Shown here piece after piece: positions 14,830-40,615 of a DNA stretch of 42,137 nt. Position 1 is the first letter of the stretch. The number at the start of each line of letters is the position of its first letter. The stretch is from a virus. Taxonomy: Duplodnaviria; Heunggongvirae; Uroviricota; Caudoviricetes. The position numbers and the translations under genes were made by a program. A model generated the notes under the pieces. It did not search any database. It was not told where the DNA came from and worked only from the letters and a program-made list of their open reading frames with translations. Where the stretch lies: IMG/VR virus record IMGVR_UViG_3300022468_000500. One strand, 5' to 3'.

Positions 14830-15278
14830 TGAGATACGCATTAATTAATTCAGGAACTGTTTTAGCTTTTATTGAGTGTACCTCTATACAGGCAGCAGCA
14901 CTACAGACTAGTTGGGATCATGTAGTAGAAGCACCAGCCCACGTAACTATATATGACAAATACGATAACGGAAACTTTAGTGTGGGTAACTTTGAACCAG
15001 TAGCAAAAGAAGTCAGGAAAGTAACTGTTTTAGGATTTCTAAGACGATTTACTGATGCTGAAGCTATAGCTATTGATTTAGGTAGCATCGGAGCGACCGT
15101 ACAAGCTGCCAGTCTACGCAGATACGTAGCAATGGTAAATGCGGCCAAGTTCGTTGATCTAGATAGACAAGATACTAGAAATGGTGTGCTGGCTTTAGTT
15201 GGGGCAGGTATCTTGACACAAGAACGTGCTGATGTAATTCTAGATGGGCCCATTCCTATAGAGGACCTAGCAGCATGA
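14829..15278 (+). CDS. Putative tail fibre assembly chaperone
   Basis: 149 aa, directly after the fibre genes. The C-terminal helical motif (FLRRFTDAE...VDLDRQDTRNGVLALVGAGILTQERAD) is typical of fibre-associated chaperones. Confidence 0.55.
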   Translation: MRYALINSGTVLAFIECTSIQAAALQTSWDHVVEAPAHVTIYDKYDNGNFSVGNFEPVAKEVRKVTVLGFLRRFTDAEAIAIDLGSIGATVQAASLRRYVAMVNAAKFVDLDRQDTRNGVLALVGAGILTQERADVILDGPIPIEDLAA

Positions 15279-15799
15279 AACTAGCCTCCTATGTGGGCAC
15301 TAGAAAAGGTTTCATAGGGATAGGTAACATTCTGATCCGCTTAAGACTAGGCGGATCAGAAAGCCATACTGAAGTCATGTTCGAACCTGGTGACGGTGTA
15401 GATGAATACATGCCCGACCTAACCTGCCAACCAGATGAGAATGGTGCCTATTGGCACTTTTCATCAGTAGGGCTCGAACGTATGCCACCGTGGTCCCGCA
15501 GAGCTGGAAAGCTCGGTGGAGCACGTTTTAAAAGAATCGTGCCTGAAGACAAATGGGCTTACGATGTAATGGATACCGACCCTACACGAGCAGCCATGCT
15601 AGCTAAGGAACTAGATGGCTCTTTATACGACTGGCAAGCAATTGTCAGATTTATCTTCTGGGTACTACCAGCCAAGCTATCAAGAGGTATGTGCAGCGAA
15701 ATTTGTGCACGCCTAGCTGGTATAGCTAAAGAGGAAGCACATTTATTCTGTCCTCGTACTATTCGTGCGATGGTAAAAGGATTTAAATGCAAGCACTAA
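15275..15799 (+). CDS. Permuted papain-like/NlpC-P60 (YiiX-like) enzyme
   Basis: His-first, Cys-last order: SHTE near the N-terminus, then YDW and MCSEICA near the C-terminus. Confidence 0.6.
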   Translation: MKLASYVGTRKGFIGIGNILIRLRLGGSESHTEVMFEPGDGVDEYMPDLTCQPDENGAYWHFSSVGLERMPPWSRRAGKLGGARFKRIVPEDKWAYDVMDTDPTRAAMLAKELDGSLYDWQAIVRFIFWVLPAKLSRGMCSEICARLAGIAKEEAHLFCPRTIRAMVKGFKCKH

Positions 15800-16143
15800 T
15801 ATTAAAATTCTGGAGAGAAATTGCACTAGCAGTAGCACTTTTAGGTTTAGGATATATGGTGTACAACCATATCTATGAACGAGGTGCCCAAGCTGCTACG
15901 GAACAATATCAAAAGGAATGGAAAGATTATCAGCAAACAATAACTGATAAGATTGATACTATTGAGAGAAACTCTAATGAACTAGTCGCAAGACGTGTAG
16001 CTAAAGATGGAGTAACCAAGAAAGAAATCGAACAGGTTATTGCCAAGAGTTTAAAAGCTCCCGTGGTTGATCCAGTAGCATGCAGATTAACTCCTAATTT
16101 CGCAGAAAGCTACAATGAAATTATTGATAGGGCAAATAAATGA
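15787..16143 (+). CDS. Inner-membrane spanin (Rz-like)
   Basis: Single N-terminal TM (IALAVALLGLGYMVY) followed by a coiled coil. Immediately precedes a lipoprotein gene. Confidence 0.75.
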   Translation: MQALILKFWREIALAVALLGLGYMVYNHIYERGAQAATEQYQKEWKDYQQTITDKIDTIERNSNELVARRVAKDGVTKKEIEQVIAKSLKAPVVDPVACRLTPNFAESYNEIIDRANK

Positions 16144-16460
16144 AAGCACTATTAGTAGGATTATTATTAGCTATAAGCTTAACGGCTTGTGGTCATACTG
16201 AAAAAATCATAGTACCTCCTGAATCTAAAGTAAATGTTAATCAGGAAGCTTTACAGCCGTGTGCGCCACTGGAAAAACTTCCAGAATTAACTTATACTGA
16301 TTTAGAACGAGATATGCAACTAGTCCTAGGGACCTCTGCAGTCAACGCTATAATCTATTCAACATGTAAAAATAAGCAAAATGATAGTATTAAGTTACTA
16401 AAAGAATTTGCTAATATAAAGGATGAAGCAGATGCTAAAAGACCTATTCAGACCCCGTAA
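16140..16460 (+). CDS. Outer-membrane spanin lipoprotein (Rz1-like)
   Basis: Signal peptide with lipobox LTA-C, a Pro-containing mature part and an ATGA overlap with the i-spanin stop. Confidence 0.8.
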   Translation: MKALLVGLLLAISLTACGHTEKIIVPPESKVNVNQEALQPCAPLEKLPELTYTDLERDMQLVLGTSAVNAIIYSTCKNKQNDSIKLLKEFANIKDEADAKRPIQTP

Positions 16461-16854
16461 CTACTTACTAGTAATTGGGTCATTACTAGTGCTACTATAC
16501 ACTTATTTTGCAGATCCAGAAGGTGGGCCCATGCTAATGGGCCTACTAGATAAACTGACTGTTCCAATTATTGCTGTATGGTTCGCACACCTATCCAGAA
16601 AAGCTCTATTTGATTATTTAGATATGGGCGAATTATGGAGAAAAGCAAAGGAGAGCTCAATTGGCGCAGCAATTACGTTTTTGGCTATATGTTTGGTGCT
16701 GTTCGGTTTGCTTGGTCTATTTGGAAATCAGGTACGCGCTGAAAATGTTAAGACTTATGTACCTGAAAATGCACAAACATATTTACCCGAGCTCAAATTC
16801 CAGCAATTAGCTCTGTGGACTGAACACCCAAAAGCTGGTACCTTGCAAGTTTAA
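16423..16854 (+). CDS. Three-TM holin-like membrane protein; N-terminal part of a frameshift fusion with the endolysin
   Basis: Three hydrophobic segments (about residues 13-30, 37-57 and 79-101) within a lysis block. SD AAGGA sits 8 nt before Met4 (16432). Confidence 0.7.
   Translation: MKQMLKDLFRPRNYLLVIGSLLVLLYTYFADPEGGPMLMGLLDKLTVPIIAVWFAHLSRKALFDYLDMGELWRKAKESSIGAAITFLAICLVLFGLLGLFGNQVRAENVKTYVPENAQTYLPELKFQQLALWTEHPKAGTLQV
16827..16833 (+). other. Candidate -1 slippery site C-CCA-AAA joining the holin-like ORF to the transglycosylase
   Basis: X-XXY-YYZ heptamer in frame 0, inside the 28-nt window (16824-16851) where both frames are open. Confidence 0.55.
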
Positions 16855-17396
16855 TAGAACACGAGTCTTGTATAGGTTTAAAACATTCTAGGTGCTGGAA
16901 TCCTTCTTCTAGACTAAAAACTAGTAGAGAAGAAGGGGCCGGCCTAGGACAAATTACTCGTGCGTATAGTACGGATGGCAGCATAAGATTCGATGCTTTA
17001 GCTGAGTTAAAAGCTAAGCACCCTAGTATACTAAGAGAATGGTCTTGGGATAATGTATATAAAAGACCAGATCTACAATTGGCAGGTATCGTGTTAAAAA
17101 TGCGAGATAACTTCACATACTACGACGGTAAAGCCAGTGAGTTTGAAGAACAGTACGCTTTTGCTGATGCTTCTTATAACGGTGGTATTGGTGGTCTCGA
17201 CAGAGAGCGCAGAATATGTAATCTTACAAAAGGTTGTGACCCTAAAAAATGGTTTGGACATGTAGAAAACTACTGTTTGAAATCAAAAACTGCGTTATAC
17301 GGACAACGCTCAGCTTGTCAGATAAATAGAGAACACGTAATAGATGTAATGAAAGTAAGAGCTCCTAAGTACAAAAAATTTATGACGTCAAACTGA
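16833..17396 (+). CDS. Lytic transglycosylase (SLT-type endolysin) domain, in -1 frame relative to 16423..16854
   Basis: The -1 frame reads SWYLASLIEHESCIGLKHSRCWNPSSRLKTSREEGAGLGQIT...ASYNGGIG, containing SLT motifs (catalytic ES, GLGQ, AxYNGG). The ORF track shows only the last 105 aa (17079..17396). Confidence 0.85.
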   Translation, partial: SWYLASLIEHESCIGLKHSRCWNPSSRLKTSREEGAGLGQITRAYSTDGSIRFDALAELKAKHPSILREWSWDNVYKRPDLQLAGIVLKMRDNFTYYDGKASEFEEQYAFADASYNGGIGGLDRERRICNLTKGCDPKKWFGHVENYCLKSKTALYGQRSACQINREHVIDVMKVRAPKYKKFMTSN

Positions 17397-17408
17397 ATAA
17401 ATTTAAAC

Positions 17409-17437
17409 TTGACGTAATTTCCCATTAGTGATAAAAT
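17409..17437 (+). promoter_or_regulatory. Sigma70-type promoter for GIY-YIG endonuclease
   Basis: TTGACG-17 nt-TAAAAT with extended -10 TG. Confidence 0.8.
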
Positions 17438-17460
17438 ATAAATTCACTAATGGAGAAACT

Positions 17461-18150
17461 ATGACTTGTGGCGTATATTTACTAAAATTTACAGGCACTG
17501 ATCTAGTCTATATAGGTCAAAGCATCAATATAGAGGACAGATACTCAACTCATTTGTATAATCTGTCAACAGGAGTAAAAGCCAATAAAAAATTGCACGC
17601 CGCTTATACTTTATACGGTGCACCTAAACTAGAGATATTAGAAGAATGCACAATAGATAAATTATCCGAGCTAGAGTCTTATTATATAAAAGATTTCGAT
17701 ACTATAGATAATGGTCTTAATATATTAAGTAACACTGATATTAAAGGCTATTCGTTACCTGGTGTTACGAATCCTAATTCTAAATACTCAATGGAGGTGT
17801 GTGAAGCTGTATTCAATGAAATTGTAGCAGGTACCATAAGTTTACTAGAAATTAGTAAGACACTAAATGTACATAAGTCTTTGGTATATGGTATAGCCGA
17901 AGGATTAGCACACAGGAGTTGGCTGGAGGAGAAGTACCCAGAAAAATACGCTATATTGCTATCTAAACAAGGTAAATGGAAACATAAAGGCGTTACTAAT
18001 GAATTGTTTATAAAAGACCCTTTAGGCAATGTGCACAAGATTAGCACTAGTTTAAAGGAATTCGCCCTACAGTACGATCTCAATAGTGGACACATAAGTA
18101 GCGTACTATCGGGTAAACGAGTTCAACATAAAGGATGGACTCTGCCATAA
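17461..18150 (+). mobile_element. Free-standing GIY-YIG homing endonuclease gene
   Basis: GVYLLKF...VYIGQS motif, conserved Arg (IEDRY) and Glu (LESYYI), and HTH/NUMOD-like C-terminal modules. The start is probably ATG 17461 (SD GGAG) rather than GTG 17428, which falls inside the promoter. Confidence 0.85.
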
Positions 18151-18159
18151 GGAATAATT

Positions 18160-18891
18160 ATGGATTATGTAAAACTACTAACAATAGCCGGAGTATCTGC
18201 TGATCTCCATGACTCAGCAATCTCTAGTTTAATGAAAGCTGAACAACGCGCCAAAGGCTTAACACTAGCCAAGTGGAAAGTTCGGTTATTTAAAGCTAAA
18301 AAGATTTCCGAACTACTATCTTGGGAAGACGAACGTTTAATCGACAAGCACCCAGAACTCGCAGCATGGGATATTGCACCAATGCTTAACATTACTGCTC
18401 ACGGTGATAACGTGCCATGGGTACGTACTAGGGCTGGTGACTTACCTATGGCTGGTCGCTGGCTTAACCCCGACCCTACATCAGCAGAGTATCATTTCGC
18501 TGTAAGTGAGAACTATTGGAAGAAAGGTACTCATCCACGTTCTAAAGAATCTCGATTTGCTTGGTATCGCCGTAACGCTGGTGAGTACAATGCGTGGGAG
18601 CGCGGAGAACCTGTATCTAAAGACATGCCACAACAAAAATGGGCTGGCAGTGACAAAGATACTAATGTTAAGGTACAGCGCTGCGGTAATGTGTGGTTCC
18701 TGAATGTTAACTACAAATTACTAAAAGTCATCCCAATAAAAACTAGAATTGGTTTTGAAATCGACAATGTATTCAAGGTTAAAAAGAACGAAGTTACTGG
18801 ACAAGAAGAAGTTGTACAGTTATGGTATCCTATTTTAAATCATGAGTTACGCGCACCTGTTACTTGGTCAACACTGCCAGGTAAAGACTAA
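18160..18891 (+). CDS. Hypothetical protein (243 aa, Trp-rich)
   Basis: Long ORF with SD AAGGA and phage-like codon usage. No motif recognised. Confidence 0.75.
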   Translation: MDYVKLLTIAGVSADLHDSAISSLMKAEQRAKGLTLAKWKVRLFKAKKISELLSWEDERLIDKHPELAAWDIAPMLNITAHGDNVPWVRTRAGDLPMAGRWLNPDPTSAEYHFAVSENYWKKGTHPRSKESRFAWYRRNAGEYNAWERGEPVSKDMPQQKWAGSDKDTNVKVQRCGNVWFLNVNYKLLKVIPIKTRIGFEIDNVFKVKKNEVTGQEEVVQLWYPILNHELRAPVTWSTLPGKD

Positions 18892-39739: not shown

Positions 39740-39823
39740 TGGTGCCCTCTGTCTGAATCGAACAGACCTTGACTTTCATCGACGGCTTACAAAGCCGTTG
39801 CAATCCCACTATGCGAAAAGGGC
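39740..39823 (-). tRNA. tRNA-Thr(UGU) with long variable arm, 84 nt, CCA encoded
   Basis: Acceptor GCCCTTT/AGAGGGC, anticodon arm ACGGC-TTTGTAA-GCCGT, T arm GTCTG-TTCGATT-CAGAC and ACCA end. Confidence 0.85.
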
Positions 39824-40039
39824 TTATAATTTAACTAAACGTCCATCACATAAAATGTTAAGATAAGGATCGTTATTGTTATCTAAAAATGCATAAGACT
39901 TCATATGATCGTAATACTCTAGACCACATGATTGACATATTGAACCGCCACCGACTCTAAGTATTTCATTAGGATTATTGTTAGAGATTGTTAAATCTAA
40001 ACAAACCTGGGTCAGTTCATTTAATTGTCGTATACGCAT
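39824..40039 (-). CDS. Hypothetical protein (71 aa) with Cys/His cluster, between tRNAs
   Basis: ICQSCG...H...LCDGRLVKL. The start is ATG 40039, because the longer ORF-track version runs through tRNA-Asp. Confidence 0.65.
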   Translation of the reverse strand: MRIRQLNELTQVCLDLTISNNNPNEILRVGGGSICQSCGLEYYDHMKSYAFLDNNNDPYLNILCDGRLVKL

Positions 40040-40045
40040 GTTAAA

Positions 40046-40125
40046 TGGCGGATGTGAAGGGGATCGAACCCTCCTGAATATCTGCAGTGACAGTGCAGCG
40101 ACCACACCAAGCAGTCCCCACATCC
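40046..40125 (-). tRNA. tRNA-Asp(GUC), 80 nt, CCA encoded
   Basis: Acceptor GGATGTG/CACATCC, anticodon arm CTGCA-CTGTCAC-TGCAG, T arm GAGGG-TTCGATC-CCCTT and G73. Confidence 0.9.
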
Positions 40126-40132
40126 TTATTAT

Positions 40133-40522
40133 TTAATCACCATCTGCATAAAGATGGTCTTCAATATGACTTAGTACTCCTGTACCAAACGTGTAAATTG
40201 GGTATGCGGAAGCACGCACACGATTAATGATTCCGAGTGACGCCATGAATACTTCTGCTGCTTCCAGTGAAATTTCACTAATAGTAGTATTAGCTAATAC
40301 GTCAGAGCCATATAGAAACTCGTTAGTACCAAAGTACATTTCTACGTCTCGTTCAGAAGGCTGATACCTTGAGTTATCTCCTTCGTCGATATATTCCTCA
40401 AAAGAACACATGCGTTTCAGTGCATTCTGTACTTGTTCTATCGAGGCACTGAAAATAATAGCGAACTCTTCGCAGTTAAATTCATCAGCGTAGTTAGCAT
40501 TCAGCTTAAGGAGAATAGGCAT
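40133..40522 (-). CDS. Hypothetical acidic protein (129 aa) between tRNAs
   Basis: The ORF fills the gap between tRNA-Trp and tRNA-Asp. Confidence 0.65.
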   Translation of the reverse strand: MPILLKLNANYADEFNCEEFAIIFSASIEQVQNALKRMCSFEEYIDEGDNSRYQPSERDVEMYFGTNEFLYGSDVLANTTISEISLEAAEVFMASLGIINRVRASAYPIYTFGTGVLSHIEDHLYADGD

Positions 40523-40539
40523 TTGTTAATTTTGTAAAG

Positions 40540-40615
40540 TGGCAACCCAACTAGGACTCGAACCTAGACCGCACGGATTTGGAGGCCGGCATCCTGCCAA
40601 TTGGACTATTGAGTT
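40540..40615 (-). tRNA. tRNA-Trp(CCA), 76 nt, CCA encoded
   Basis: Acceptor AACTCAA/TTGGGTT, loop CT-CCA-AA, T arm CTAGG-TTCGAGT-CCTAG and G73. The anticodon stem has two mismatches. Confidence 0.85.

Follow-up and report, generated by a model that had tools for sequence, protein, structure and literature searches.

The split gene

We examined the lysis cassette of a tailed phage (Caudoviricetes) in the IMG/VR record IMGVR_UViG_3300022468_000500. The whole stretch of DNA that was analysed is 42,137 nucleotides (nt) long. It is called the window here, and all positions count from its first letter. Two open reading frames (ORFs) on the plus strand are at issue. The first, at 16423-16854, encodes 143 amino acids with three transmembrane (TM) helices, predicted N-in/C-out, and is the holin-family part. 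The second, at 16833-17396, lies in the -1 frame relative to the first. It has 187 codons plus a stop and encodes the remainder of a lytic transglycosylase resembling glycoside hydrolase family 23 (GH23). The beginning of this enzyme is in the first ORF. Past its third helix (TM3) the 3-TM ORF has an AxA-like site, VRA-EN, and then the first 35 or so residues of the mature enzyme.

The overlap of both ORFs contains a slippery heptamer, C_CCA_AAA, at 16827-16833 on the plus strand. It is the proposed -1 shift site. The heptamer is in register with frame 0, which reads across it as CAC CCA AAA (His-Pro-Lys) and ends six codons past it at TAA 16852-16854 (plus strand). Just 5' of the site the -1 frame is closed by a TGA on the same strand (16821-16823), a configuration also found in three relatives (loci L001, L029 and L081). 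From there the -1 frame encodes TPKSWYLASLIEHESC...GLGQ...YNGG and stays open until 17396. The IEHESC motif is at 16854-16871, with EHES at 16857-16868. The first ATG, GTG or TTG of the -1 frame after the TGA is TTG 17079, which is downstream of both the IEHESC and the GLGQ motifs. There is a GTG further upstream at 16815, but independent initiation there is blocked because the TGA sits between it and the heptamer. A -1 slip would give ...TEHPK-SWYLASLIEHES..., a product of 137 + 187 = 324 amino acids. A preliminary description of this DNA had given the coordinates of the ORF, stops, heptamer and motifs and had proposed the 324-residue fusion, and each of these was confirmed by re-reading the sequence.

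We argue that these two ORFs are very probably one recoded gene of the lysis cassette, expressed by means of a -1 ribosomal slip. The case is built on sequence comparison, and it begins with the relatives.

Relatives sharing the frame break

There are more than 2,000 homologues of the -1-frame protein (2,165), in length classes of about 176-193, 230 and 313-327 amino acids. The longest are single ORFs collinear with the predicted trans-frame product, with three TM helices, the linker and the enzyme. Those of about 230 residues have a signal peptide followed by the linker and the enzyme. The module is found in three architectures: (A) a holin-like gene next to an enzyme that has its own export; (B) both in a single fused ORF, common in Burkholderiales prophages; and (C) the fused arrangement split by a slip site, as in the window. 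As to where members of the split clade might be sought, the prophage relatives point to freshwater Burkholderiales.

DNA was fetched for 80 IMG/VR, 80 metagenome and 33 genome loci. These were picked by the conserved enzyme motifs, independently of the junction. Positions at the junction are counted from the first Glu codon of EHES, and the non-redundant set was made at a 95% threshold. The enzyme lies in frame -1 behind a frame-0 3-TM ORF in 51 loci including the window. The non-redundant set has 39 such split loci and 84 continuous ones. The 39 are only distantly related, with a median nucleotide identity of 57% and a minimum of 42%. The frame-0 ORFs of split loci are about 131-143 amino acids long and end 2-9 codons past the site, and the frame-0 stop is at most 10 codons from the site in 38 of the 39 non-redundant loci.

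An in-register X_XXY_YYZ heptamer is present in 50 of the 51 split loci. It is found at -30, with one at -27. CCCAAAG accounts for 36 loci and CCCAAAA for 9, followed by CCCTTTT (2), CCCTTTC (1), CCCAAAC (1) and AAAAAAG (1). The encoded residues vary (Pro-Lys, Pro-Phe, Pro-Asn, Lys-Lys) while the slipperiness is retained. Across the homologous 16 codons an in-frame heptamer is found in 38/39 split but only 3/84 continuous non-redundant loci (Fisher p 5e-27), so its presence is not due to chance. In L167 and L170, two close T5-like relatives whose signal-peptide enzyme is continuous, the same His-Pro-Lys is spelled CAC-CCT-AAG, and this sequence is not slippery. The closest relative of the window is L081 (72% identity), and its frame break is at CCCTTTT. 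It must be noted that an additional split locus, L172 (CAYGVZ010000051.1), is on a 13-kb contig in a metagenome-assembled genome binned as 'uncultured Pirellulales'. It has CTG at -42 and the heptamer CCCAAAG, and it is probably a phage contig that was mis-binned.

A maximum likelihood tree of 120 enzyme domains places the split loci in one clade (support 98/87) with long internal branches. This implies that a single ancient loss of one base has been kept through extensive divergence. One fused member (L106, Ga0116183_1074872; HPRPWYLAAL) falls inside the split clade, near its base and without a resolved position. Either its fused ORF is the ancestral state or the split has reverted in it. The preliminary description had proposed looking for the frame break and the heptamer in relatives. 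Both are kept in this deep clade, and the sequence of the heptamer is free to vary.

Coding evidence at the junction

Conservation of the protein sequence changes frame at the site. Among the 39 loci, amino acid identity upstream is 0.47 in frame 0 against 0.26 in frame -1, while downstream it is 0.60 in frame -1 against 0.33 in frame 0. Frame -1 has stops within 15 codons upstream of the site in 25/39 loci, and frame 0 has them in none. The trans-frame product, read from the 3-TM part into the enzyme, aligns without gaps to the single-ORF relatives. The spacing from a conserved Trp to EHES is 13 residues in both. Where dS (synonymous divergence) is unsaturated, the enzyme part has a ratio of nonsynonymous to synonymous divergence (dN/dS) of 0.08-0.16 and the 3-TM part one of 0.06-0.23, and by this measure purifying selection acts on both halves of the split gene.

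The codon at -42 in frame -1 is always xTG. Its TG is supplied by the Trp codon conserved in frame 0, and its x is the wobble position of the codon before. It is TTG in 23 of the 51 split loci, CTG in 16, GTG in 10 and ATG in 2. A wobble base that is free to vary gives such a spectrum; a start codon does not. There is no ATG, GTG or TTG upstream of the heptamer in 14 of the 39 non-redundant loci. In four loci (the window, L001, L029 and L081) a stop lies between the xTG and the heptamer, and in L081 it is a TAG immediately 5' of the CCC. Between the near-identical L028 and L029 there is a CCC/CCT difference that leaves the frame-0 protein unchanged and puts a TGA into frame -1.

The shorter homologues can be read in the same light. 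Those of 189-193 amino acids begin exactly at the position of GTG 16815 in the window, and those of 176-183 begin at 'MIEHESC' or 'MLASL', which are obvious makeshifts of gene callers. In the 189-193 class the N-termini read M-(GNN)-x-(NCA)-P-K, which is the -1 reading of frame-0 Trp-x-x-His-Pro-Lys. This suggests that these predicted starts are by-products of the upstream frame. Gene callers mis-annotate the split genes, with the endolysin starting at a fortuitous TTG or GTG, at 'MIEHESC' or at residue 86. Because the start is misplaced, the sole endolysin of a group of uncultivated T5-like phages of about 99 kb is truncated in databases. Expressing the annotated ORFs for enzybiotic work would yield inactive or incomplete proteins.

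The transglycosylase

The -1-frame protein matches phrog_669, 'endolysin'. No Pfam family matched either ORF at E <= 0.1, the SLT model (PF01464) being unmatched, and a PDB sequence-profile search with our enzyme alignment (A2) found nothing. The fold is recognisable in AlphaFold2 (AF2) models of the enzyme, which have predicted local distance difference test (pLDDT) scores of 83 and 87. Comparison of the AF2 model with VIA-align gives MltF with Z 17.9 (175 residues, root mean square deviation 3.2), then MltC (14.6), MltE (14.2) and Slt70 (13.4), and also Slt and MltD. MltF is likewise the top match of Foldseek against the PDB, with a weak E of 0.04. In the AF2 model the helix of residues 4-15 ends at EHES, which places the catalytic Glu-Ser at a helix end, and GLxQ and AYNxG-like motifs are present. 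E12, E14, S15, G40-G42-Q43 and Y118-N119-G120-G121 are invariant in the alignment. The fold matches and the Pfam SLT model does not, so the enzyme is a distinct sequence family (phrog_669) with a GH23-like fold.

The structural alignment to MltF begins at model residue 19, and the linker helix upstream of the slip site has a pLDDT of about 95. As modelled, the slip site is inside the transglycosylase fold, between its first (linker) helix and the catalytic helix.

Cultured homologues with 47-54% identity are annotated as endolysins in YuA-like Pseudomonas phages, Bordetella phage FP1 and Aeromonas phage ST4. The homologue in Stenotrophomonas phage Sonora is annotated 'SAR endolysin transglycosylase', SAR standing for signal-arrest-release. 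The helix adjoining the enzyme in the window is TM3. It contains Gly, Ala and Ser, and it is internal, after two TM helices and a cytoplasmic loop, which is not the arrangement of a SAR endolysin. All three architectures retain the AxA-like site behind TM3 (VRA-EN in the window, VYA-Q or ARA-QD in relatives), so that signal peptidase may free the enzyme here and not leave it tethered. Three complete 99-kb genomes of the clade have no match to five common Pfam families of endolysins (Peptidase_M15_4, Phage_lysozyme, Amidase_2, VanY and SLT), so the split gene appears to be the sole recognisable endolysin.

The membrane protein

The hydrophobic stretches of the window's 3-TM ORF, read directly from the protein, are at about residues 14-30, 37-57 and 80-101, and a hydropathy scan gives 2-3 TM segments in the frame-0 ORFs of the split loci. 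The preliminary description had called this ORF holin-like. The label is supported by position, after a spanin pair and directly before the endolysin, and by stand-alone homologues. Metagenomic relatives with a signal-peptide enzyme have a separate 3-TM gene of 98-124 amino acids upstream. It ends right after TM3 and is plainly homologous to residues 1-100 of the window ORF (RKALFDY motif). The N-termini of the fused proteins are homologous too. In cassettes of the YuA/Sonora type the order is spanin(s), a 3-TM holin of 106-111 amino acids (phrog_8226, E 1e-26 to 1e-31) and the endolysin, and the window has the same order.

The label stands less well on its sequence links to phrog_8226, which are weak. 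The window ORF matches this holin family at E 3e-4, and the 3-TM ORFs of five clade members do not match it at 0.01. In hhalign the 3-TM part matches the holins of Sonora, ST4 and ECML with a probability of 73% (E 3e-5). With BLASTP the 3-TM ORF had no significant match to the holins of Sonora and ST4, and a signal came only from the profile comparison. This profile match is suggestive, not proof.

The ORF begins with M-K-Q-M (16423-16434), with an AAGG immediately in front of the first ATG and 9 nt ahead of the second. This resembles a dual start. It is not kept in relatives, which begin MKEHL...

Proposed mechanism

The route of expression that we favour is as follows. Most ribosomes would stay in frame 0 and end at 16852, making a 143-residue membrane protein of the holin family with a short periplasmic tail. 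A fraction would slip back one base on C_CCA_AAA (16827-16833) and continue in the -1 frame to 17396. The P-site tRNA-Pro would exchange its pairing with CCA for one with CCC, and the A-site tRNA-Lys would find AAA again. The slipped product would be 324 amino acids long, with the same three TM helices followed by a GH23-like lytic transglycosylase in the periplasm. This enzyme is the only endolysin that can be recognised in the phage. That it is the ribosome that slips, we infer from the evidence above. How much of the membrane protein bears the enzyme, relative to how much is free of it, would be set by the slip. The enzyme would either stay anchored up to the moment of triggering by the membrane protein, or be cut loose by signal peptidase at the conserved AxA site that follows TM3.

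How often ribosomes slip can be approached through the sequences around the heptamer. The preliminary description had drawn a stem (16840-16849/16867-16877) and a pseudoknot (16855-16859/16886-16890), but these do not survive comparison: they pair in 56% of cells against 55% in shuffles, and are not conserved. The 110 nt of the window after the heptamer fold somewhat better than shuffles (z -2.7), which for the window alone is not evidence of a stimulator. An AAGG upstream of the site is found in many loci, where it comes from Lys-Val codons, and is absent in the window. Since no conserved stimulator was found, the slip rate would be low to moderate, and the slip likely yields a minority product, as in lambda G/GT. 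The heptamer C_CCA_AAG is the most shift-prone of 64 tested in E. coli reporters (PMC4066793; PMC5009743). There it shifts at 54% with a strong pseudoknot, at about 0.3% without a stimulator and at up to about 3.7% in a favourable 3' context.

Several observations weigh against a slip as the source of the enzyme. RNAalifold over the 110 nt after the heptamer in 24 loci finds only a 6-bp helix with no compensatory change, and no conserved Shine-Dalgarno (SD)-like element is apparent on reading the junction sequences. At the E. coli rates, which may not be those of the host, the yield of the sole endolysin could be very low. TTG, GTG or ATG is present at -42 in 25/39 relatives, and independent or coupled initiation may contribute in these. 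One split locus has no heptamer at all. This is L133 (metagenome contig JACCDQ010037580.1, junction near 2470), where the junction is CCT_TTT_C, a U_UUU tetramer, and TTG is at -42. It may use a weaker slip on the tetramer or independent initiation.

If the ribosomal slip is granted, one can ask what it is for. We infer a role of the slip rate in dosage or in the timing of lysis. In its fullest form, programmed frameshifting would be a built-in dosage device for lysis. A gene in which a holin was fused to an exported endolysin would have been split again by a -1 slip site, and one mRNA would give many free subunits of the holin family and few that bear the enzyme. The slip rate, and not promoters or starts, would set the wall-degrading activity loaded on the membrane and the timing and sharpness of lysis. 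We regard this wider proposal as possible but somewhat doubtful. If it is true, recoding is a layer of lysis control.

Alternative explanations

The main alternative is that there are two overlapping genes and no frameshift, with the transglycosylase initiated at the -42 xTG (GTG 16815) or by termination-reinitiation after the frame-0 stop. The 25/39 relatives with TTG, GTG or ATG at -42 could be read this way, since gene callers predict the 189-193-residue proteins from this very codon, and the related phages YuA, Sonora and ST4 do have separate holin and endolysin genes. We consider it improbable. It fails in the window itself, where TGA 16821 follows one codon after GTG 16815 and the next start, TTG 17079, is past the catalytic motif. 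It fails equally for the 14/39 loci without a canonical start and for the 4 with a stop. A real start should not look like a wobble base, and yet the -42 codon is ATG in only 2/51 loci and CTG in 16/51. The protein made would be without an export signal and without the first helix of the fold. Two genes would also leave unexplained why slipperiness is kept while Pro-Lys becomes Pro-Phe or Lys-Lys.

One extra base added at the A/T run by RNA polymerase would restore a single ORF in transcripts. Productive slippage of this kind needs runs of about 7-9, far longer than the A3, A4 or T4 found at the site in most loci. The conserved register of the heptamer with frame 0 matters only to ribosomes. 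We therefore judge polymerase slippage very improbable, even though a few relatives have longer runs (A7 in L159, A6 in L094 and L096) and slippage on long A runs is an established route (PMC5009743). The least probable explanation, which we would put close to negligible, is that the endolysin gene is simply broken, either because A5 was read as A4 or by a recent inactivating deletion. It is true that the break equals the loss of one base adjoining a short A run. However, the same break is found in 39 non-redundant loci from many studies and assemblers with different heptamers, and the closest relative, L081, breaks at CCCTTTT. The downstream frame is under strong purifying selection, and the complete relatives have no other recognisable endolysin. 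The preliminary description had proposed a programmed -1 frameshift, with a lost A as the competing explanation. The frameshift reading is borne out by the conserved break, the variable heptamer in register, the purifying selection on both ORFs and the many loci without a start.

Two other candidates were tried and rejected. Ribosome collision at the frame-0 stop was dismissed by reasoning only: the stop is 7 codons past the A-site codon, too close for a queued ribosome to be on the heptamer. Read-through of TGA 16821 from GTG 16815 fails to explain L081 or the loci with CTG at -42.

Genomic context

The window is part of the genome of an uncultivated T5-like siphophage. It has genes for a major tail protein, a tail chaperone and a tape measure protein of 3168 amino acids. 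It further encodes a split NAD-ligase, SbcCD, a D5-like regulator, DNA polymerase, primase, helicase, ribonucleotide reductase (RNR) and PhoH. A megablast search of 15200-18200 against cultured phages gave no match. The tail chaperone gene (867-1645) has the classical layout for a -1 frameshift. Its frame 0 ends at TAA 1275-1277, the -1 frame runs from 1250 (after TGA 1247) to 1645, and an in-register heptamer A_AAT_TTT is at 1256-1262.

The split gene is preceded by a pair of spanin-like genes on the plus strand. The i-spanin-like gene (15787-16143) encodes 118 amino acids with an N-terminal TM helix and a coiled region. It has weak PHROG matches to Rz-like spanins, and its position is that of the spanins in Sonora and YuA. 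The o-spanin-like gene (16140-16460) encodes a lipoprotein of 106 amino acids with the lipobox LTAC, and has weak matches to the Pfam LysC/Rz1-like family and to phrog_456. It shares 4 nt with the i-spanin gene and 38 nt with the 3-TM ORF. The lysis cassette is headed by an ORF of 174 amino acids (15275-15799) that has no Pfam match and matches phrog_1128 ('enoyl-CoA hydratase-like'). A language model gave a weak lead to Peptidase_C92, a permuted papain-like amidase. This ORF could be a second wall-active enzyme or something unrelated.

A gene for a GIY-YIG homing endonuclease (17428-18150) is directly 3' of the transglycosylase gene. Bacillus phage AgentSmith (L162) has an endonuclease gene between a truncated duplicate and a full copy of a homologous transglycosylase. 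In the T5-like L167 (logan SRR33038206 contig) the signal-peptide enzyme directly follows a fibre-like gene of 677 amino acids, with no holin-like or spanin gene adjoining it, and PhoH and RNR come next as they do in the window. Three tRNA genes are on the minus strand of the window at 39740-40615 (Thr-TGT, Asp-GTC and Trp-CCA). No gene in the window encodes a tRNA-Lys or tRNA-Pro that could bear on the slipping.

Comparison with known systems

Programmed frameshifting in phages is textbook knowledge for tail chaperones and some capsid proteins, but not for the holin-endolysin system, which is the best-studied timing device in phage biology. The split gene would share the mechanics of the tail chaperone G/GT, where most of the product is the short protein and a -1 slip at X_XXY_YYZ (G_GGA_AAG in lambda) near the end of the short ORF adds a lesser amount of an extended one. 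In both, the position of the site is conserved while its sequence varies, and a strong RNA stimulator would not be needed. G/GT serves tail assembly, whereas the role here is in lysis, with an enzyme as the extension and a polytopic membrane protein as the short product. The heptamer is of the same class as those of E. coli dnaX (A_AAA_AAG) and of the C_CCA_AAG reporters. In dnaX there is an SD-like element upstream and a hairpin downstream, and the shifted product is the shorter one; in the split gene neither element was found and the shifted product is longer. A parallel in one respect is lambda S105/S107, where one gene gives two membrane proteins in a fixed ratio, which tunes the timing of lysis in lambda. 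There it is done by two start codons two codons apart and not by recoding, and neither product bears an enzyme.

In full-text literature searches, no paper turned up that describes a holin-type protein joined to an endolysin by a frameshift. A frameshift has been claimed at the level of annotation for genes 39/40 of Alteromonas phage H4/4, which would join an endolysin domain to an internal virion protein (PMC5658483). That product serves entry and not lysis, and it is not a join of a holin-family protein to an endolysin. In the coat/lysis overlap of the RNA phage MS2 (Kastelein 1982), reinitiation follows frameshift errors, and again no holin-family protein is joined to an endolysin. Frameshift-dependent expression of a phage lysis enzyme seems not to have been described before. 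Programmed -1 frameshifting is a known mechanism, and what is new is the biological setting.

The most direct comparison is with the same module in its other two states. The cassettes of YuA (gp60-62), FP1, Sonora and ST4 have a homologous transglycosylase (47-51% identity) in the same gene order. Their exported enzyme starts with the same (A/V)xA-QDV.TYIP linker. In these phages holin and endolysin are encoded by separate genes that start independently, and a signal or SAR helix belongs to the enzyme itself. The enzyme of the window lacks its own start and signal, and recoding would join it to the holin-like protein. The single-ORF proteins of Burkholderiales prophages and IMG/VR contigs (313-327 amino acids) have the 3-TM part and the transglycosylase in one continuous frame, with no slippery heptamer at the junction, e.g. 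CACCCGCGA. For this reason they cannot yield an enzyme-free membrane protein by termination. One homologous module thus exists in three states, separate, fused and split by a frameshift, which makes the need for both an enzyme-free and an enzyme-bearing membrane protein directly testable.

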